Shown: positions 9,311 through 59,117 of the stretch, piece after piece
Layout: each line of letters begins with the position of its first letter
Position numbering within the stretch: position 1 is the first letter of the stretch
DNA from: Candidatus Gottesmanbacteria bacterium GW2011_GWC1_43_10
GTDB lineage: Bacteria > Patescibacteriota > Microgenomatia > UBA10105
Assembly (NCBI GenBank): GCA_000995415.1
Contig: LCEX01000002.1
Location: 19,232-83,231 of the forward strand
Direction of reading: 5' to 3'
DNA length: 64,000 nucleotides
The notes under the pieces: model-generated
What the model saw: the letters and a program-made list of their open reading frames with translations, nothing else
Database searches by the model: none
What the model was told of the DNA's origin: nothing
Made by a program: the position numbers and the translations under genes

Positions 9311-10723
9311 TCAATGCTTCCAAAGTTTTTCTGCAAAAGGTCTAATTTTCAACCGGTACATCCCGACGCCGCACATATATAATAATCGCAGACCATGGGA
9401 AATAGCGTGCATTTTGGATTCGCCGGTCTGCCGTTTTTTGTAATGTACCGGATACTCTTTGATCCGAAGTTGCAAATTGGCAGCGCCAAACAAAAGGTCA
9501 AAATCGCCCCAGGGTTCATTACCCAAGATTATCTTACGGGCATCTTTTTTAAACAAGGCTTTGGTACCACACAAAGTATCGGTAACTCTTTGATTTAAAA
9601 GCCAACTAAAAAATGAACTAAAAAATTTATTTCCCAATAAGTGAAAATACCGCATTGCTTGTTTTTCCATGGGGTAGACCATCCGAGTGCCGTTGACGAA
9701 ATCCGCTCTATTTTCTGCCAGCAATTCGTAAAAACAGGTGAGTTCCTGGGGAGGTACTGTCATATCAGCGTCCAAAATGAGTAGAATCTGTCCCCGAGCT
9801 CGGGCAAATCCGGCGGCCACAGCTCTAGCTTTGCCTTGATTTTTTGGAAATGTTATTAGCGTGATAGCCTTATTCTTCTTAGCAATTTTGCGCACGATTT
9901 GGTTCGTTTTATCGGTTGATCCATCATCGACGACAATAATTTCAGTTTTTTTTCCTAGACGGGGAACCTGCTTGATGCAGGGGGTTATGTTGTCAGCTTC
10001 GTTAAAGACTGGAATAATGATCGAAGTAGAATACGTCTTTGATTTTACTTTAGGTGCTTTTTTACTAACTAAATATTCGACAAAGGCCAAATGTTTCAAA
10101 GCGCCAAGTTGGGAAATATGTCTATTAACCAAATTCGATAAACCCAGGATATGTTTAGGAATCAGTGCGGCGTATCCTGACTGTTCTATGGTAAAACCAC
10201 AGATTTCAAATATGTTGATTAAGTCCGGAAGCGGTACCCAGTTGTGTGGTCCTTCCGGCATCTTCATACCGATTTTTTCAGTGAGATGTAAGACCGGTTC
10301 CCAAATAGGATTGATAGTCGAGACCACTACCTTGGTTTGTGGAGTACAGACTTGCCTGATTTGGTGTAGTGCTTGATAAATGTCTGGTAAATGATCAATC
10401 AGATCACACAGAATGACCGCGTCGTATGTTTGCCGAAGACGAAGTTGGTAAACATTTTGTTGCCAAAATGACAAATCTTGGTGTTTGGCTCGGGCCAATT
10501 TTATCATCTCGCCGCTGATATCTATTCCGTGACCAGTACGTGGAGCAACGGAAGCTAAAATGTCTCCAGTGCCACAACCGACCTCAAGTACTTTTTGGCC
10601 AGGAGAGATATGGGCAGCAAACAATTGCTTGAGTTGCAGATAATAGTACCATGACTTTTTCTTCCAGTTGTCATAGTCCTTGGCCAGCGTGTCAAAATGA
10701 TTTTTGACTGATGAAGCATCCAT
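9311..10723 (-). CDS. Fusion protein: N-terminal class I SAM-methyltransferase plus C-terminal GT2 (polyprenyl-phosphate sugar synthase / DPM1-like)
   Basis: VLEVGCGTGDI motif I in the N-terminal half. The C-terminal half has IIIPVFNEADNI...IIVVDDGSTDKT...ILDADMT and a QxxRW-like region. Confidence 0.8.
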   Translation of the reverse strand: MDASSVKNHFDTLAKDYDNWKKKSWYYYLQLKQLFAAHISPGQKVLEVGCGTGDILASVAPRTGHGIDISGEMIKLARAKHQDLSFWQQNVYQLRLRQTYDAVILCDLIDHLPDIYQALHQIRQVCTPQTKVVVSTINPIWEPVLHLTEKIGMKMPEGPHNWVPLPDLINIFEICGFTIEQSGYAALIPKHILGLSNLVNRHISQLGALKHLAFVEYLVSKKAPKVKSKTYSTSIIIPVFNEADNITPCIKQVPRLGKKTEIIVVDDGSTDKTNQIVRKIAKKNKAITLITFPKNQGKARAVAAGFARARGQILLILDADMTVPPQELTCFYELLAENRADFVNGTRMVYPMEKQAMRYFHLLGNKFFSSFFSWLLNQRVTDTLCGTKALFKKDARKIILGNEPWGDFDLLFGAANLQLRIKEYPVHYKKRQTGESKMHAISHGLRLLYMCGVGMYRLKIRPFAEKLWKH

Positions 10724-48023: not shown

Positions 48024-48090
48024 AGCCAGTCGAAGTGCAGGGCCGTGTCTGATGTTCGCACCTTTTACGCACAAAATCAACAAAATTTGT

Positions 48091-49386
48091 TTATTTTTCA
48101 GGCTTAAAAAGCAACCACTCATAAAGAGGAATTACTTGAATTTTAAAGCCCTCAGATTCTATTAACTCCTTATCACTTTCGGTAATGATTAGCAGTTGAC
48201 TCGGATTTTTTTGTTCTTGCGCCGCTGTCACTAAAGCATTCACTTCTCTATTTTTCGTCTCATCCGTCAACTGTTTTGTTACTTGAATAAACAGTTGGTC
48301 TTTGGGAATAAAAAAATCAACTTCTTGTTCTTGACCGGTTTTGTAATAATATACGTTCTTTTGTCTTCTTAGCAGTTCCAAATATACCACGTTTTCCATA
48401 AACTTACCCGAGTTTGGCGAAAAACTAAAACCCACTGATTTGGTCAGTCCAGTATCAATACTGTAAATTTTTTTAGCAGCTATCTGCTGTTCTTTAACTG
48501 AGTATGCATATTTGTTAACTACAAAAAACAACCAACTGCTTTCTAAATAATTTATATAATTTTTGACCGTGTTGACACTCCCTAATCGTAACAAGTCTTT
48601 AATTTTGTTAAAGGAAATCAAGGCCGAGGTATTGCTGATCAGATATAGGGATAATTCCTGTAGACTTTTAACGTTGTCCAACTTGTACCTTGTGGCAATA
48701 TCACGATACAAAACGTCGTCGTACAAAGTCTTATGAACTTCCAATTCCGGATATTTAAGTGCATCTGGGATACCACCTAGGGCAATATAGTCATTAACCA
48801 ATTTGAGTAATTTGCCTTTTTGAGCGGTCGTAAATATACTCGAGTTGTCCAATGTAACTTCTTTAAAGCGCAAATATTCACGAAAAGAAAACGGAAAGAC
48901 TTCCATACGAAATGATCGGCCGGTTAAGCGAGTACCTAATTCCTGGGACAATAAAGAAGCATTAGAACCGGTTATTATAAACTTATACCCTTGGTCATAC
49001 AGCCTTCTGATAAACCGTTCCCATTGAGGTACATTTTGGATTTCGTCAAAGATAAATATTTTTTTTTCACCATACAGGCTGATTAAACCTTCATAAAGAA
49101 GATCAAAATCTTTGACACTAAAATTTAGTAGTCGCTCATCCTCAAAATTGACAAAATAATAGTCCTTTTTGAAGTAAGTATCAGCTATTTGTGATAGAAG
49201 CGTTGATTTTCCCACTCGCCGCAGTCCAGTAATCACGGTAATTTGAGGTGAGTCCATAACTGGTTTTAAACTACCTAATATCTCTCTTGGGACTCCCCGG
49301 TCCTTGACCAAAAAGGCCTCATATTGTTCTTTCAGAACTGAGGCTAATAATTCCTTGGTAAGAGTGGTCGGTTGTCCAATTGGCAT
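48091..49386 (-). CDS. AAA+ ATPase, AAA_14 plus DUF4143 family
   Basis: Walker A ITGLRRVGKST and Walker B IFIFDEIQ; the C-terminal region is typical of DUF4143. Internal ATG at 49386 (MPIGQP). Confidence 0.8.
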   Translation of the reverse strand: MPIGQPTTLTKELLASVLKEQYEAFLVKDRGVPREILGSLKPVMDSPQITVITGLRRVGKSTLLSQIADTYFKKDYYFVNFEDERLLNFSVKDFDLLYEGLISLYGEKKIFIFDEIQNVPQWERFIRRLYDQGYKFIITGSNASLLSQELGTRLTGRSFRMEVFPFSFREYLRFKEVTLDNSSIFTTAQKGKLLKLVNDYIALGGIPDALKYPELEVHKTLYDDVLYRDIATRYKLDNVKSLQELSLYLISNTSALISFNKIKDLLRLGSVNTVKNYINYLESSWLFFVVNKYAYSVKEQQIAAKKIYSIDTGLTKSVGFSFSPNSGKFMENVVYLELLRRQKNVYYYKTGQEQEVDFFIPKDQLFIQVTKQLTDETKNREVNALVTAAQEQKNPSQLLIITESDKELIESEGFKIQVIPLYEWLLFKPEK

Positions 49387-49488
49387 GCATGTACTATAAT
49401 ACCATTTGTTTTCATTGTCAATGAAAACTTTAGGTAGGTAGTTTTCAGTATCGTTGAAAGCTTTTAAAGCAATAAAAATACTGTAATT

Positions 49489-51705
49489 ATGATTACAATC
49501 ATTCCTGAACAAATAGCTTTGTATCGCTCCTTTTTTAATACCCGCACAGATGTATTTGCTAAATATTGGGTAGATTTGTCAGGTAAAAAGTCCGGGTATT
49601 CACCAGTTTACCGTTTGAACCAGTCACCACAAGCATTAACTGATATGGTTATTATCTCCCATTTGCAAGGTAACCAAACCATCGGTGTATACCCTCTGTT
49701 TCCAGATAATACAACAGCCTTTTTGGCAATTGATTTTGATGGCAGTGAGTGGTTAAAAACAATCCAACATGTAGTAACTGTTACCCAAGATGACAAAATA
49801 CCCATAGCAATTGAACGCTCCAGGTCAGGCAATGGAGCTCATATCTGGTTTTTCTTTACTAATCCGATTCCAGCCTATCTTGCCCGGCAGTTTGGTAGAT
49901 TTATTCTTAACCAATCAGGCATCACCACTCGCAAAACCTTTGACCGGCTGTTTCCCAGCCAAGACGAACATACCGGAAAAGGTTATGGAAACCTTATCTG
50001 TTTACCGCTCCAGGGAAAACTAGCCAGCGAAGATAAAACTGTATTTATCACTCCTAACGGTAACACTATTCCTGACCAGTGGCACTATTTAGCCCAAATC
50101 AGGAAAATATCGGTAACTGAGATCCAACAATACATCAGTAATTCCAATAAGCCGGTTATCTTTAACAAAGAGCAAATATCTGCACCGCAATCAAATCAAG
50201 CTACTCATCAAACCATCGAAGAGTCTAACGAAACTCAAGTAGTTACTACCCAAGGCCAACAAACCAAGTTGATACTTGGTTCGCAGATATTTATCCCAAA
50301 TATTTACTTACCCGATAAACTACATCGCTTCCTCAAAAGCGAACTCAATTTCCCCAACCCTGAATACTTTACCAAAGAACGGTTTGGTTATTCTACCTGG
50401 CAAACACCACGGTTTATCAAAACTATTGAAGTGCATCCCGATGGCATAACTATTCCGTTGGGATTATTGGATCAAGTGATGAAATTTATTAACCAAGAAC
50501 AATTGCAGGTGGAAATTACCGATAAACGAATTACTACAAAACCAGTGAGTTTCCCCTCAACTATCAAATTACGAAAAGACCAACAACAGATTTTACATGA
50601 ATTGCTCACCTTTGACCGTTCAATTCTTCAAGCTCATCCAGGATTTGGAAAAACTATGGTGGCTTTGTATCTGATGAAGAAACGCCGGCAAAAAACCCTG
50701 ATTATTGTCCATACAAATACTCTCCTTTATCAATGGCACAAGCGCATTACTGAATATTTTTCGCTTAAGAAAGATGAAGTCGGAATAATTGGTGATAACA
50801 AATGGAATATTGGTAAAAAGGTAACCATTGCTTCCTATATGACTTTGAGCCGGCGCGGAGTGAAAGAGATTAAGGATAATTTCGGATTCGTAATTGTTGA
50901 TGAGTGCCACCATGTGCCGGCTAACACGTTTAGTACTGTAGTCAAACAATTTCCGGCTAATTATATGCTTGGATTGACAGCTACCACCTATCGTAAAGAC
51001 AAGCTGGAAAAATTGATGTTTTTGTATATTAGCAACCATACAGTACCAGCTAAAGAGCAAACCCCATCAAAACAACCGGAATTATCCTCAACAGTCGAAA
51101 CACAACTACTTACCCGCAAAACTGAGTTTGAGATACATAGTAAAGTGGATGATTTTCAGGAAATCAGCCGCTTTACTATTGTTGATGATAAGCGGAACAA
51201 CCAAATCACGAGAGATATTGCTGAGGTTTTGGCAACCGGTGCTAAATGTCTCGTCCTGACCGAAAGGCTTGAACATTCGGAAAAACTATTGGAATTGGTT
51301 CGTACTAAAACAAAAGGCATTCATGCTGCAGTAGCCACCGGTGTCATGACTAAAAAACAGCGCGAACGGATCACGAAGCGGATGAGCCAGGAACGGTTCC
51401 AACTCCTCATTGCTACCGGAAAGCTCATCGGAGAAGGCTTTGACTGGCCGGCTGTTTCCCACCTGTTCCTGGCTTTTCCGTTTTCCTGGAAAGGTAGATT
51501 GATACAATATGTGGGTAGAGTGCAGCGAAATTCTGAGGGGAAAATTCTAGCCGTAGTTCATGATTATTTTGATGACAAAGTCCCTATGCTCAAACTAATG
51601 TATTTCAAACGTCTACGTACCTACCGTAGTTTAGGACTAACCAAAATCGGCAATCCTCAAAAACATACCAGCCTACCCGAAAACCAGCTGAGTCTGTTCG
51701 GATGA
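49489..51705 (+). CDS. Fusion of AEP-type primase-polymerase-like N-terminal domain with SF2 (DExH/ResIII-like) helicase
   Basis: N-terminal motifs LAIDFDG (hhhDhD), RSRSGNGAHIWFFF (sGxGxHxW) and LICLPLQG. C-terminal Walker A GFGKTMVAL, VIVDECHHV, LGLTATTYRKD and motif V/VI ATGKLIGEGFDWP...YVGRVQR. Confidence 0.6.
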   Translation: MITIIPEQIALYRSFFNTRTDVFAKYWVDLSGKKSGYSPVYRLNQSPQALTDMVIISHLQGNQTIGVYPLFPDNTTAFLAIDFDGSEWLKTIQHVVTVTQDDKIPIAIERSRSGNGAHIWFFFTNPIPAYLARQFGRFILNQSGITTRKTFDRLFPSQDEHTGKGYGNLICLPLQGKLASEDKTVFITPNGNTIPDQWHYLAQIRKISVTEIQQYISNSNKPVIFNKEQISAPQSNQATHQTIEESNETQVVTTQGQQTKLILGSQIFIPNIYLPDKLHRFLKSELNFPNPEYFTKERFGYSTWQTPRFIKTIEVHPDGITIPLGLLDQVMKFINQEQLQVEITDKRITTKPVSFPSTIKLRKDQQQILHELLTFDRSILQAHPGFGKTMVALYLMKKRRQKTLIIVHTNTLLYQWHKRITEYFSLKKDEVGIIGDNKWNIGKKVTIASYMTLSRRGVKEIKDNFGFVIVDECHHVPANTFSTVVKQFPANYMLGLTATTYRKDKLEKLMFLYISNHTVPAKEQTPSKQPELSSTVETQLLTRKTEFEIHSKVDDFQEISRFTIVDDKRNNQITRDIAEVLATGAKCLVLTERLEHSEKLLELVRTKTKGIHAAVATGVMTKKQRERITKRMSQERFQLLIATGKLIGEGFDWPAVSHLFLAFPFSWKGRLIQYVGRVQRNSEGKILAVVHDYFDDKVPMLKLMYFKRLRTYRSLGLTKIGNPQKHTSLPENQLSLFG

Positions 51706-51749
51706 TACTTTTTTACTAAAAATGTCTGTGCATAGGTTAAAATACCAGT

Positions 51750-52472
51750 ATGGTTAAAATTAAAAGGCAAAAGCATTTAACTAGGTCTCCAATTATATAT
51801 GGTGGTGACTTACCAATTTCACCTGATACTAACTCGGAATATATCTCTTACCATAATGAAGTAAATCTTAATGACTACGACTATCAAAAGGTAATCACCG
51901 AAAGTGAACGTACACTCTTTGAGCTCAATACGCCAAGGGAAATTAAGAAAAAACTGCTGTTTCTGCTTGGAGGTTTTGCAACAGTAGAATGCTATAAACT
52001 ACTCAAGAAATTTTTTGAAAATGGAAATAGCGAGCTTAAACCATGGGCAACGCTTGCGATGCAGGATCTGCGCTTCAAAATTGAAAATGAAATACGTGAA
52101 GAAGAGATGGATATGATTATGACAGGACTTGGAGGAATGAATAACAAACTCCGTTTTATGGTAGTTGTAAGTTCCAAAGCTGGAAAACCTTTAACGGTCA
52201 CTCATAAACGAATTATTGAGAAGGAATTATATAAAACAGCTAAACAACATGATTCTGAAGTTGAGCAAATTGAATTTGGGAGAAATTATGCTTTAATAAC
52301 CATCTTAATTTCTTTTGAAGTTGCGCCGCAAACGCCGATGGATGCGTTACTAGATGTAGTAAGTACAAAAAGACATATACTTCGGTATCATTTCATGATA
52401 GTCAATACACATAAGATTACAAAAAAGGAAATTGAGGAATATTTGAATCTGGATGAAGTAAGAAAATTATGA
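51750..52472 (+). CDS. Hypothetical protein (ORFan), island-associated
   Basis: 240-aa ORF directly downstream of the helicase; no recognisable motif. Confidence 0.4.
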   Translation: MVKIKRQKHLTRSPIIYGGDLPISPDTNSEYISYHNEVNLNDYDYQKVITESERTLFELNTPREIKKKLLFLLGGFATVECYKLLKKFFENGNSELKPWATLAMQDLRFKIENEIREEEMDMIMTGLGGMNNKLRFMVVVSSKAGKPLTVTHKRIIEKELYKTAKQHDSEVEQIEFGRNYALITILISFEVAPQTPMDALLDVVSTKRHILRYHFMIVNTHKITKKEIEEYLNLDEVRKL

Positions 52473-52855
52473 ACCTGAAACAGCATTTGAAATCTTTATC
52501 GAAAGACCAACTTATTAAGGAAATTCAAACGCTTTCCACTAAATTTCTTCAAGTTAAACAATATTATGAACTAAGGATTAAAGAAAACACAAGTAATGAA
52601 ATACTTGCAGTATACAAAAAACGGATCAAGGAGGAATTTTTCCCAACTCATGGATTTGGAGATGGCAGACTTTCAGTTGCGAGAAAACCGATCCAAGAAT
52701 ACAAAAAAATCGCTACCGATCAATTAGAAATTATTGATTTGATGCTCTATTACGTTGAGATCGGCGTGAAATACACTCGCGCCTATGGTGATATTAATGA
52801 GCAGTTTTATAACAGCATGGAAAATATGTACGAAAATGCTTTGGGACTTATTTAA
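52469..52855 (+). CDS. Hypothetical protein (ORFan), translationally coupled to the upstream ORF
   Basis: ATGA overlap with the 51750 ORF; 128 aa, charged with a coiled-coil-like composition. Confidence 0.4.
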   Translation: MNLKQHLKSLSKDQLIKEIQTLSTKFLQVKQYYELRIKENTSNEILAVYKKRIKEEFFPTHGFGDGRLSVARKPIQEYKKIATDQLEIIDLMLYYVEIGVKYTRAYGDINEQFYNSMENMYENALGLI

Positions 52856-53353
52856 CAAACGAACATGCATAATGACTTTTACAATCGTTGTAAAAAGATT
52901 GTTACTGATACTGAAGGTATAGGGTGGGGATTTTATGACAACCTTTCTGCTTTATTCAAAACATATTTCAAAAAATTCGAATCCTAGTCAGAGTCACGAG
53001 TTTCGCACCTGATGTAGTTTGATGTACACTTAAAGGATGGCTAAATCATTGTGTACAAAAGAGCTGTACTCTACTTTTCTTCGGGTAACCAGTTTCATTG
53101 CCAGGCTCGCACGAGCCGAGCTCAGAGAAATCATATTGTCCTCTCGGTACTTACCTGGATCAAACAAGCTGCCCTACGAAAGCAATACAATATTTCCTTT
53201 TATCAACAACAGTGGAACACCATAAAAGATACTATTGCCCTGCAACTGAAGTATGAATTAATTCCTACCTAAGTGCGAAACTCGTGTCCTCAAGCGCTTT
53301 TAGCATCAATTGTTTATTTGAGTACATCATGTATGGTTATTATTGGGTAGTCT

Positions 53354-54280
53354 TTATACCTGATCGAATACTATTCGATTGAGTTCTGATTGCGGTGCTA
53401 ACTTTTTAACCGTTTGTTCCACCTGTCTTTTGTCCACATGAGCGGCAATAACCACAGCTCCATAGAGGGCGAAATGCAGCTTTTTCAAACCTAATTTACG
53501 GTATTCTTTTTTGTACGTTTTTGCTTCCAAAAGACCACGGTGATAAAAGTAGATTGGTAAATACAATGCAGGTTTTTTATGGATAAGATCCTCAAGTTCG
53601 TCACGATACATATCTAAGTTTTTTGCAGATTGTAGATAAAACTTGATTTGGGCAATCTGTTTATCTTCTTTGGTAACTGATTTCGTAAAAGGCAGTGAAG
53701 TTATCAAGCCATAGGTAAGTTCTGCCTGCTGACAAGTTTCATAGATGTCCCGACTTATGTTTCGACCAAAATATATAGTAGAAGCATAGTAAAGCCCGCA
53801 CGTTGTAATTACCCCCTCAAATGGTAAAAGGACAGTCTCAACTAAAAATGGCAGCGTTTGTCTTGGCCACATCTCTTCAAAAGCGCTTACAAGTCCTTTT
53901 ATCAAATACGCTTTTTCATCATGGCCATACGTTAAGAATACCGCTCCATCTTTGAGATATTTCACAATATAGAATTTGTCTTTGTAATGATACTGCTTCC
54001 ATGAACGAATAATTTCGGATTCGTGCTTGTCCAGATTTCTCGTTACGAGGAATTCATCAAATACGTTCGGATGAGTCCATATGAATTTAGCTATTTTGCC
54101 TGCATCTTCAGTTTTAATACCTTGATGAAAATCTTTGCCGAGCATAGTTGGAGCGAGTTTATATTTCTCATTTGTATTTTGAAGCAATCCAAACCATAGG
54201 TGATAAAAACGCGTTATTTGATCAGGCGTAAGTTGTGAAGATTGATTTACCATATTTAAATTTATCCCCTGTTTTCCCAT
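53354..54280 (-). CDS. Hypothetical protein (ORFan) adjacent to tRNA locus
   Basis: 308-aa ORF with no recognisable motif. Confidence 0.4.
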   Translation of the reverse strand: MGKQGINLNMVNQSSQLTPDQITRFYHLWFGLLQNTNEKYKLAPTMLGKDFHQGIKTEDAGKIAKFIWTHPNVFDEFLVTRNLDKHESEIIRSWKQYHYKDKFYIVKYLKDGAVFLTYGHDEKAYLIKGLVSAFEEMWPRQTLPFLVETVLLPFEGVITTCGLYYASTIYFGRNISRDIYETCQQAELTYGLITSLPFTKSVTKEDKQIAQIKFYLQSAKNLDMYRDELEDLIHKKPALYLPIYFYHRGLLEAKTYKKEYRKLGLKKLHFALYGAVVIAAHVDKRQVEQTVKKLAPQSELNRIVFDQV

Positions 54281-54368
54281 TGAATTGGATGGTCAAAAAT
54301 CAGAGAAAAATTCGAATCTCAGCCTGAGAGATTATTTTTAGATTGTTATGACAAGCCAAATTTGATGT

Positions 54369-54416
54369 GCTGAGGCTAGGATTCGCACCTAGGTAGCCCG
54401 TTAGGGCGATCCCGCC
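54369..54416 (-). other. tRNA-like 3' half (variable arm, T arm and acceptor 3' strand) of a split tRNA-like gene
   Basis: Minus-strand sequence GGCGGGAT-CGCCCTAACGGGC-TACCTAGGTGCGAATCCTAG-CCTCAGC. A 35-nt block (54374-54408) is identical to tRNA-Tyr 54435-54469. Confidence 0.5.
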
Positions 54417-54429
54417 TTCATTTAAAGTG

Positions 54430-54514
54430 TGCCAGGGCTAGGATTCGCACCTAGGTAGCCCGTTAGGGCGACAGTTTTACAGACTGTTGCGATTGACTGC
54501 TCCGCCACCCTGGC
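54430..54514 (-). tRNA. tRNA-Tyr (anticodon GUA), type II with long variable arm; non-canonical D and T loops
   Basis: Acceptor GCCAGGG/CCCTGGC plus discriminator A; anticodon stem ACAGT/ACTGT with loop CTGTAAA (U33, GUA, A37); variable arm CGCCCTAACGGGC; T stem CTAGG/CCTAG. The D-loop lacks GG and the T-loop reads TGCGAAT (G at position 55). Confidence 0.6.
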
Positions 54515-54527
54515 ACTATCAGTGATT

Positions 54528-54562
54528 GGCGGGATTGCGATTGACTGCTCCGCCACCTCAGC
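54528..54562 (-). other. tRNA-like 5' half (acceptor 5' strand, D arm, anticodon-stem 5' strand) of a split tRNA-like gene
   Basis: Minus-strand GCTGAGG-TG-GCGGAGCAGTCAATCGCA-ATCCCGCC. Its D arm is identical to that of tRNA-Tyr (22-nt identity, 54535-54556 vs 54487-54508). Its acceptor strand pairs with the 3' half at 54369-54375. Confidence 0.5.
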
Positions 54563-54624
54563 TTACCCTTATTTTAACAAATACGGTACTAATTAACCAC
54601 TCTAAACGGGTTAAAATCACCCGA

Positions 54625-55415: not shown

Positions 55416-55787
55416 ATGCAACTGCCCATAAATGCTCCTTCACTAAAGGAGAATAGAATAAAGCTTCGTAAAAACCAAACTCATGTTGAATTTCTTCTTT
55501 GGTCAAAACTCCGAAATAAACAACTATTAGGGATCAAATTTTATCGTCAATATAGCATTGGTTATTACATTGTTGACTTTTATTGTCATCAATATAAGTT
55601 GGTTATTGAACTTGATGGAGGACAACATAACGAAAAGTCTCGAAAAGCTTATGATGATAAACGAACCCAGTTTCTTAACGGGCAAGGAATTGTAGTTCTG
55701 AGGTTTTGGGATAATGATGTCATTAATAATATTAAAGGTGTATTGGAAGTAATTAAACGACAAATTGAGGAAAGGAACTCACCCTGA
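55416..55787 (+). CDS. DUF559 (Vsr/restriction-endonuclease-fold) endonuclease-domain protein
   Basis: Characteristic block YIVDFYCHQYKLVIELDGGQHNEKSRKAYDDKRTQFLNGQGIVVLRFWDNDV. Confidence 0.8.
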   Translation: MQLPINAPSLKENRIKLRKNQTHVEFLLWSKLRNKQLLGIKFYRQYSIGYYIVDFYCHQYKLVIELDGGQHNEKSRKAYDDKRTQFLNGQGIVVLRFWDNDVINNIKGVLEVIKRQIEERNSP

Positions 55788-58895: not shown

Positions 58896-58990
58896 ATGGG
58901 AAATGGTTTATCCCGATCGTATCGGGACGACCTACTGTTTATCCGTCTGCCTTAAGTTGGAGCCCTTCCGCAGAATTGGATTGCGATCAA

Positions 58991-59012: not shown

Positions 59013-59045
59013 GTTTATCCCAGTAAATCTCGCCTCCTGATACTG

Positions 59046-59117
59046 AGCCGCCTGTCGGGATTGAACCGACGACCTACTGTTTACAAAACAGTAGCTCTAC
59101 CACTGAGCTAAGGCGGC
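59046..59117 (-). tRNA. tRNA-Thr (anticodon UGU)
   Basis: GCCGCCT acceptor; D loop AGTGGTA; anticodon stem ACTGT/ACAGT with loop TTTGTAA; T arm GTCGG-TTCAATC-CCGAC; acceptor 3' strand AGGCGGC. Confidence 0.8.

Follow-up and report, generated by a model that had tools for sequence, protein, structure and literature searches.

A block of ~6.3 kb (48.07–54.36 kb) lies directly 3' of a tRNA-Tyr gene in a 64,000-nucleotide stretch (hereafter the window) of contig LCEX01000002.1 from Candidatus Gottesmanbacteria bacterium GW2011_GWC1_43_10, a member of the candidate phyla radiation (CPR). We consider it probable (roughly 0.65) that this block is a horizontally acquired mosaic of mobilome and defence-type genes, without a recombinase, at a tRNA-Tyr hot spot; that its core is related to IS-excision enhancer (IEE; IS, insertion sequence); and that the tRNA-Tyr gene beside it, which sits inside the two halves of a second tRNA-Tyr-like gene, derives from the splitting of an ancestral tRNA-Tyr. 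The original prediction, made from the letters of the window alone, had described a tRNA-linked accessory island. Its accessory nature, foreign composition, position beside a tRNA gene and lack of a recombinase stood up to analysis, whereas no attachment (att) repeat could be demonstrated at the 48.0-kb end and the gene content fits a mosaic rather than one island.

The block is foreign in composition and lies at a break in synteny

The assignment of 48.07–54.36 kb as accessory and compositionally foreign was supported. The region had been called AT-rich by eye, and computation bore this out: GC content is 37.5% for 48036–54365 compared with 41.9% for the rest of the window, the lowest of any 6.3-kb stretch there, non-overlapping stretches of the same length elsewhere in the window always having at least 39.8%. 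Tetranucleotide usage departs most from that of the remaining window over 48–54 kb, where the distance reaches 0.22–0.24 (window mean 0.144, standard deviation (sd) 0.031), or ~2.5–3 sd over that mean. The compositional boundary at ~48.0 kb falls within the intergenic gap of two convergent genes. Neither the block nor its tRNA features are an artefact of a single assembly, since the window here shares 99.75–100% identity with five retrieved contigs and one contig from JGI; the 738-aa product of 49489–51705 is 100% identical on contigs from several assemblies, including GCA_000998825.1 (LCFD01000003.1).

Relatives were sought via PGI in genome contigs, via PPIase in a set of 5.8 billion proteins, and by seven context look-ups. 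The nearest ones in the databases share 66–74% identity in flanking proteins, with none between 99% and 74% for PGI and PPIase. On the right-hand side, the order PPIase-(DUF559)-PGI...M50 peptidase-L28 is kept in four of them (L006, L091, L092 and L154), whereas to the left of PPIase/tRNA-Tyr the gene order differs in all six syntenic relatives examined. In L154, tRNA-Tyr (minus strand) and PPIase (plus strand) are placed as in the window, and beyond them come five small unknown open reading frames (ORFs) and then pentose-phosphate genes. No counterpart of the block genes was detected in 85 related loci by protein-level comparison, apart from one unrelated AAA_14 paralog, and the genes are also absent from the syntenic relatives retrieved additionally. 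Thus neither a core gene order conserved among relatives nor a composition uniform with the flanks, which together would speak against an accessory region, was found.

A full-length IEE homolog is encoded in the block

The 738-aa protein (49489–51705, plus strand) combines an N-terminal AEP primase-polymerase domain with a C-terminal superfamily 2 (SF2) XPB/RadD-like helicase domain. Pfam returned AEP-TOTE (4.9e-67, profile positions 1–229/230), ResIII (1.1e-26), Helicase_C (2.5e-11) and DEAD, confirming the predicted primase-helicase fusion. Over residues 7–722 it is colinear with a 786-aa protein of E. coli O157:H7 EDL933 (33% identity, E 1e-135), which itself matches AEP-TOTE (1.7e-98), has its GKT lysine at residue 451 and lies in an AlpA/YfjI integrative-element context. 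We identify the EDL933 protein as IEE because its length, architecture and Lys451 match those of IEE in PMC9943667. In an alignment of 16 homologs, the AEP residues D82, D84, H118, D152 and D159 (DxD, H and D motifs) are invariant, and GKT (387–389), DECH (471–474), TAT and the Arg finger (R677/R680) vary little or not at all; the closest solved relatives of the helicase domain are XPB and RadD. Judged by its sequence, the 738-aa protein is a full-length IEE homolog and not the 'divergent' primase-helicase that it had been taken for. The family counts ~5,900 database homologs, many of them full-length in CPR bacteria (Gottesman-, Roizman-, Shapiro-, Andersen- and Peregrinibacteria).

As described in PMC9943667, IEE couples an AEP polymerase, which is Mn-dependent and error-prone, to a helicase-like SF2 ATPase within one protein. 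Its joining of 3' overhangs relies on microhomology of at least 4 bp; it also stimulates the transposase-dependent loss by excision of elements of the IS3, IS1 and IS30 families, and it has spread horizontally. The E. coli and the window proteins share the two-domain architecture, a similar length (786 versus 738 aa), the AEP-TOTE domain and the catalytic motifs, and both are encoded on horizontally mobile DNA near insertion sequences, the window gene adjoining the IS701 stub described below. They differ in the host, which is here a CPR bacterium in which IEE-like activity is predicted, and in their neighbours: E. coli IEE is without the two operon partners found in the window (p240 and a DUF6155 protein), and the gene upstream of it encodes an 'inovirus-type Gp2' protein. 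Equivalence of p240 to this Gp2-like neighbour was considered and rejected (hhalign probability 0.1%).

Full-length homologs were found by tblastn in 98 plasmid records, one of them from the E. coli O157:H7 EDL933 record, while the full-length AEP-helicase fusion occurred in none of 50,697 isolate phage genomes. Single-sequence queries recovered no close relatives of IEE or p308 from viral contigs. An alignment query of IMG/VR returned ~25 full-length IEE homologs at 30–35% identity, and the two contigs inspected, one with three integrases and one with RtcB and RF-1 genes, resemble integrated elements, not phage replication modules. On the latter (L096, 5497–10214), the full-length homolog stands directly 3' of genes for an RtcB RNA ligase and an RF-1-domain (PrfH-like) protein, with a DDE transposase nearby. 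On the former (L103, 7818–16157), the homolog has 966 aa, including an additional region at its C-terminus, and downstream of it come three tyrosine integrases in tandem (Arm-DNA-bind_5), an arrangement that suggests an integration hot spot. A longer homolog on L097 bears a DUF559-like C-terminal domain.

The genes of the block travel separately in other genomes

Four further genes accompany the IEE homolog. Downstream of it and in operon with it is the conserved hypothetical gene p240 (51750–52472, plus strand; 240 aa), whose stop is overlapped by 4 nt by the start of a DUF6155 gene (52469–52855, plus strand; 128 aa; Pfam DUF6155, 3.7e-17). Divergently oriented is a gene for an ATPase with AAA_14 and DUF4143 domains (48091–49386, minus strand; gene call of 431 aa, the ORF reaching 49512; Pfam 1.6e-39 and 3.8e-22, respectively), as had been predicted. 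The fifth gene, p308 (53354–54280, minus strand), was recognised as an ORF with homologs and encodes a rare, CPR-specific protein of 308 aa. The two overlapping ORFs and the 308-aa ORF had been expected and exist, but they are not the ORFans that they had been called: homologs are known for p240 (512 clusters), for DUF6155 and for p308 (20 clusters, in CPR bacteria). A structural model of p240 (pLDDT 90.9) combines a helical repeat domain with a ferredoxin fold like that of IS200 TnpA; its best matches are IS200 TnpA and ferredoxin-like folds, not TBP. For p308 the model was poor and gave only weak deaminase-like matches. A palindrome, TCTCAGCCTGAGA, at 54316–54328, between a promoter-like site (54359–54331, minus strand) and the p308 start, could be an operator. 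Homologs of p308 elsewhere are preceded by a small gene (L086, 13139–13441; L151, 7850–8008; L152, 3–224), in two cases with a weak Calci_bind_CcbP match; this partner is missing in the window because the tRNA nest occupies its position.

Other genomes assemble these genes differently. Two loci (L086 and L087) have the order AAA_14-DUF4143 gene (33% identity, divergent and upstream), IEE homolog (69%) and, convergent and 11 bp after it, p308 homolog (67%); they are without p240, DUF6155 and the IS stub, and no tRNA-like RNA lies nearby (Rfam scan of L086). In L088, the IEE homolog is preceded at a distance of 5 nt by a p240 homolog, and genes for Fic, a serine recombinase and a tyrosine recombinase lie in the vicinity. 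In L089, the IEE homolog is followed by four toxin-antitoxin pairs and a Replic_Relax gene, and on its other side two adjoining, divergent tRNA-Met genes (9590–9815) separate it from a tyrosine integrase; this locus makes a clearer tRNA-linked island with the same gene family. Homologs of p308 that occur without IEE adjoin toxin-antitoxin genes, a DDE transposase or three AAA_14 ATPases, and IEE homologs on plasmids adjoin HigBA and IS630/IS3 elements. Because the genes travel separately in other CPR genomes, we interpret the block as a mosaic of mobilome genes and not as one island.

The same contexts bear on whether the block might be a working anti-phage system, a TOTE-type AEP-helicase selected as a unit with p240, DUF6155 and the ATPase, which we consider unlikely. 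The name of the AEP domain family in Pfam refers to the TOTE conflict system (TPR, OB, TBP, Effector; Aravind et al. 2022 as cited in PMC12458937). Furthermore, the ATPase matches the PADLOC candidate defence family PDC-S01 (PDLC04787; 1.5e-111, profile 8–407/412), which makes it a candidate defence protein on sequence grounds, and PADLOC also reported a CRISPR-associated PrimPol match in the block. The divergent pairing of an AAA_14-DUF4143 gene with an IEE homolog in two genomes and the toxin-antitoxin-rich neighbourhoods elsewhere point in the same direction. However, the proteins that define TOTE, as far as its components are given in that citation, are absent: no TPR or CSD family, as expected of the TPR-OB protein, was found in the block or flank genes, no TBP-domain protein is encoded here, and the fold of p240 is not that of TBP. 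Partner genes vary among homologs, the two AAA_14 proteins are 33% identical compared with 69% for the IEE homologs, and the sole characterised relative, IEE, has its role in IS excision and end joining rather than defence.

Putative tRNA fragments across the block include the ends of an IS701 remnant

tRNA-Tyr-derived fragments had been reported to recur across the block. The only significant tRNA repeats lie at most 62 nt from the tRNA. The segment at 48035–48066 (plus strand), which had been put forward as a weak copy of the 3' end of tRNA-Tyr, is intergenic, with the convergent genes on either side, and shares with the tRNA only the 9-mer TTCGCACCT plus GTGC-AGGGC. Its gapped score against the tRNA is 27, which is at chance level, other sites in the window scoring up to 33 and the maxima of 20 shuffled windows ranging over 31–40.5. 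It was rejected as an att site, its score being under the chance maxima and its position at the compositional boundary the one point in its favour. A second candidate, a direct repeat around the IS stub and p308 (D7, AAAAATTCGAATC..., 52971–52993 and 54306–54328; 19/23 positions), was likewise rejected because ~2 such pairs are expected by chance in 8 kb (our own estimate) and its 12-mer core is not enriched.

The supposed T-arm pieces at 52977–53008 and 53269–53288 have a different origin. The former scores 20 against the tRNA, compared with 22–24 for unrelated sites in the window. The latter matches the tRNA at 14/15 positions and is the best site outside the tRNA locus (25 ungapped, 33–34.5 gapped), but it does not exceed the shuffle maxima and is a borderline match. 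Both are read as decayed IS ends, not integration scars, because they are the arms of a perfect inverted repeat around a transposase remnant. This IS701-family remnant (52995–53286, plus strand) consists of the two inverted-repeat ends, a perfect 14-nt repeat CACGAGTTTCGCAC at 52995–53008 and 53273–53286, and a 73-codon ORF between them (53051–53272) that holds the transposase C-terminus (last ~57 codons) and has its stop codon within the right repeat. The ORF matches the NCBIfam IS701 transposase (profile 264–315/318, 3.5e-9) and, by tblastn, annotated transposases on Piscirickettsia and Rickettsia plasmids (47% identity, 1e-8). As in the IS701 family, a transposase C-terminus and terminal inverted repeats are present; unlike a member of that family, the window element has only ~292 bp left and counts as a remnant, since only profile positions 264–315/318 survive. 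No target-site duplication is visible at the stub, and the window and retrieved loci hold no further copy save other copies of this locus.

Recombinases are also lacking, as had been predicted. No Phage_integrase, Resolvase or Recombinase family was found by Pfam among the genes at 39.5–61.7 kb, and phmmer with eight queries (five tyrosine integrases, one serine recombinase and two DDE transposases) against the six-frame translated window gave no match at E ≤ 1. No excisionase was found in the window either. Since no recombinase is present, 'decayed' is a reasonable description of the region.

These observations bear on the possibility that a single island integrated at the tRNA-Tyr 3' end, bounded on the far side by the repeat at 48035–48066, and later lost its integrase or was mobilised in trans. 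Such an event would explain why the block is found 3' of the tRNA, why the compositional boundary at ~48.0 kb falls in the gap holding 48035–48066, and why TTCGCACCT recurs at that end; the L089 locus, with its tRNA-Met genes and with a tyrosine integrase opposite the IEE homolog and toxin-antitoxin genes, offers a parallel. We nevertheless judge it improbable: the repeat scores under the chance maxima, neither integrase nor excisionase was found in the window, the genes occur apart and in other orders elsewhere, and the second tRNA 3' half is just 13 nt from the tRNA and not at the far end of the block. In its position 3' of a tRNA gene, its atypical composition, its accessory or defence-type cargo and its variable content among relatives, the block resembles tRNA-associated islands. 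It differs from them in having no integrase, no significant flanking direct repeat and independent modules, and in that the tRNA duplications are nested round the tRNA instead of standing at two island ends. The tRNA halves had been regarded as boundaries of elements; in fact they flank the tRNA itself (5' half, whole tRNA, 3' half), and integration at a tRNA 3' end does not explain them because it does not yield this order.

A tRNA-Tyr gene is nested within a second tRNA-Tyr-like gene

The inner gene is an intact tRNA-Tyr(GTA) at 54429–54514 on the minus strand (ARAGORN; Rfam tRNA, 53.7 bits, E 1.4e-9). The split halves predicted at 54369–54416 and 54528–54562 are real and belong to an outer tRNA-Tyr-like gene on the same strand: its 3' half (54366–54416) contains a 44-nt direct repeat of the inner tRNA at 93% identity, and its 5' half (54528–54562) a 23-nt stretch 100% identical to the inner D arm. 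Along the minus strand, the order is a promoter-like TTGTTAAAATA motif (54570–54580, 8 nt upstream of the outer 5' half; a putative promoter as read from the sequence), the outer 5' half, a 12-nt spacer, the whole tRNA-Tyr, a 13-nt spacer and the outer 3' half. As the sole promoter-like site lies upstream of both outer halves, they must form part of the transcript.

Read in the direction of transcription, the outer 5' half consists of GCUGAGG-UG, the D arm, A and AUCCCGCC, and the outer 3' half of GGCGGGAU, C, the variable arm, the T arm and CCUCAGC-A. The acceptor strands GCUGAGG and CCUCAGC are exactly complementary (7 bp), and AUCCCGCC pairs with GGCGGGAU in a perfect 8-bp helix. In the D, variable and T arms, 22 + 36 nt (58 nt) of the outer halves equal the inner tRNA; the differences are confined to the acceptor stem (3 bp, all compensated) and to the anticodon-stem positions, where GGCGGGAU takes the place of the anticodon stem. 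The predicted fold of the 200-nt transcript has one tRNA enclosed by another (−82 kcal/mol, z score −3.9), and the outer pieces cofold at −46.3 kcal/mol compared with −29.9 ± 3.8 for shuffled sequences, ~4 sd better. Complementarity and predicted folding together show that the outer halves can pair. If the 111-nt insert, 86 nt of which are the tRNA, is removed, the outer arms would form a 16-nt palindrome, ATCCCGCC followed by GGCGGGAT, from which the anticodon loop is gone.

The nest is identical in all seven retrieved copies (the window, five assembly contigs and one JGI contig). In contrast, L092 and L154, the only relatives with a tRNA-Tyr found (PPIase 68–69% identical), each have a single ordinary tRNA-Tyr. 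Their acceptor stems (GCUGGGA in L092, GCUGGGG in L154) resemble the outer GCUGAGG more than the inner GCCAGGG, and L154 has TTGTTAGAATA upstream of its single gene, the motif TTGTTAnAATA being common to L154 and the window. Because the stems are nearer to the outer copy and L154 shares the motif, we infer that the ancestral gene survives in the outer halves, its anticodon arm having received a second tRNA-Tyr by insertion.

Searches for similar arrangements remained negative. A scan of JGI metagenomes for a doubled D arm returned the same species only, and scans of IMG/VR for the inner anticodon arm and the D arm gave no match. Among 49 tRNAs in the 2.3 Mb of retrieved loci scanned, the only repeats were one of a tRNA-Glu 5' half on L048 and one at the 3' side of tRNA-Thr in the window. 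The literature searched held no description or precedent of a tRNA nested within a tRNA. Other interrupted tRNA genes, whether split as in archaea, permuted, or carrying introns such as the group I introns in anticodon loops of bacterial tRNAs, are comparable in that a tRNA-shaped molecule is made of two pieces, paired by the acceptor stem and an extended anticodon-arm stem, with the interruption in the anticodon arm. The window nest differs in that the insert is itself a complete tRNA gene, the outer exons are without an anticodon loop, and the host is a bacterium. Moreover, a bulge-helix-bulge is absent, the prediction being a continuous 8-bp helix without 3-nt bulges. An Rfam scan of 47–56 kb at E ≤ 1 returned tRNA only and no group I intron core; at 111 nt, the insert is short beside typical group I introns.

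The pairing of the outer halves raises the question of whether the nest is a functional RNA, from which RNase P and RNase Z would free tRNA-Tyr and leave a two-piece, anticodon-less molecule acting as decoy, regulator or polymerase-helicase cofactor. Consistent with such a role, both outer long-range helices are perfect (7 bp + 8 bp), every departure from the inner tRNA falls within those helices and is compensated, the cofold is better than that of shuffles, and the lone promoter-like site precedes the halves. Nevertheless, we hold a functional RNA to be quite improbable. The nest was found in one species only, L092 and L154 have ordinary single genes, and the IEE/p308 module of L086 has no tRNA-like RNA nearby. 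Moreover, covarying stems with conserved arms are the normal pattern among tRNA-Tyr orthologs: the inner tRNA and that of L092 differ at five stem pairs and at only ~2 arm positions. Since the tRNA-Tyr orthologs of the clade differ in this way, compensated stems are by themselves no proof of selection on the nested fold. The further proposal of a bacterial functional 'split tRNA-like' gene, whose processing would free tRNA-Tyr and leave a stable mimic of this kind as a nuclease decoy or as primer or cofactor of the IEE-like polymerase-helicase, we regard as very doubtful, and likewise a variant in which the nest would be a footprint left by that polymerase in templated-insertion repair.

Two partial tRNA duplications were noted apart from the nest. 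Downstream by ~130 nt of tRNA-Thr(TGT) (59045–59117) is a 15-nt copy (AAACAGTAGGTCGTC) of its anticodon-stem/variable/T-stem segment (59068–59082 versus 58926–58940, minus strand), followed by a hairpin, which may be an old integration or recombination scar. On a Microgenomates contig (L048, 1495–1569), a tRNA-Glu has a ~21-nt copy of its 5' half at most 120 nt upstream, which might be a second case of 5'-half duplication. In the right flank of the window, a gene for a DUF559 (Vsr-like) endonuclease (55416–55787, plus strand; GC 33%, GC3 25%) between PPIase and PGI resembles a small mobile gene; it is absent from this position in L006 and L091, and L154 has an opposite-strand copy with 60% identity.

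Discussion

In the explanation that we favour, genes of mobilome and defence-island type would have gathered at a synteny-break hot spot beside tRNA-Tyr without forming one intact integrative element. The core would be the operon of IEE homolog, p240 and DUF6155, divergently paired with the AAA_14-DUF4143 (PDC-S01) ATPase. By homology, the IEE-like protein is expected to act on DNA ends or gaps left by transposases or nucleases. An IS701 element would have inserted downstream and decayed to the 292-bp stub, and p308 would be a separate, rare CPR accessory gene. The ancestral tRNA-Tyr, behind its ancestral promoter-like motif, would have been split in the anticodon arm by ~111–117 bp carrying a second, complete tRNA-Tyr. 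The inner gene would now be the functional tRNA, and the outer halves would be transcribed as its leader and trailer, able to pair into a tRNA-like clamp.

Several points weigh against this reading of the block as a recombinase-free mosaic beside a split ancestral tRNA gene. The limits of the block had to be deduced from its composition and genes instead of an empty site, because the collections searched hold no genome closer than ~70% identity in flanking proteins. The 9-mer TTCGCACCT occurs four times in the window compared with 0.53 expected, always on the plus strand (48055, 53002, 54382 and 54444), coinciding with the left boundary, the IS end and the two tRNA copies, and never outside 48–54.5 kb; this leaves a faint doubt that a very degraded att repeat may exist. 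Pfam places the AEP domain under a conflict (defence) system, and the IEE-type activity of the CPR homologs is predicted from the E. coli protein. As to the nest, the outer AUCCCGCC/GGCGGGAU stem pairs perfectly over 8 bp and the CUGUAAA anticodon loop has vanished completely, an outcome not expected of a simple insertion into an ordinary tRNA gene, and the 58-nt arm identity together with the compensated long-range stems could also be due to selection that favours correct folding of the nest.

As an island, the block is nothing out of the ordinary: accessory genes, without a recombinase, at a tRNA-linked hot spot. The gene content has wider bearing: many unannotated 'DEAD/DEAH helicases' of CPR bacteria are now linked to the experimentally studied IEE, with p240 and p308 as two recurrent partner genes of IEE homologs in CPR, which provides a hypothesis for a common CPR mobilome gene, namely that it may carry out Pol-theta-like end joining at transposase-made breaks. 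The nested tRNA-Tyr is the one unusual feature, and it may be a scar or a functional RNA. If a scar, it would record an unusual route by which an essential, presumably single-copy tRNA gene was disrupted and rescued; if the outer halves are stable, they would be a bacterial counterpart of archaeal split tRNAs.

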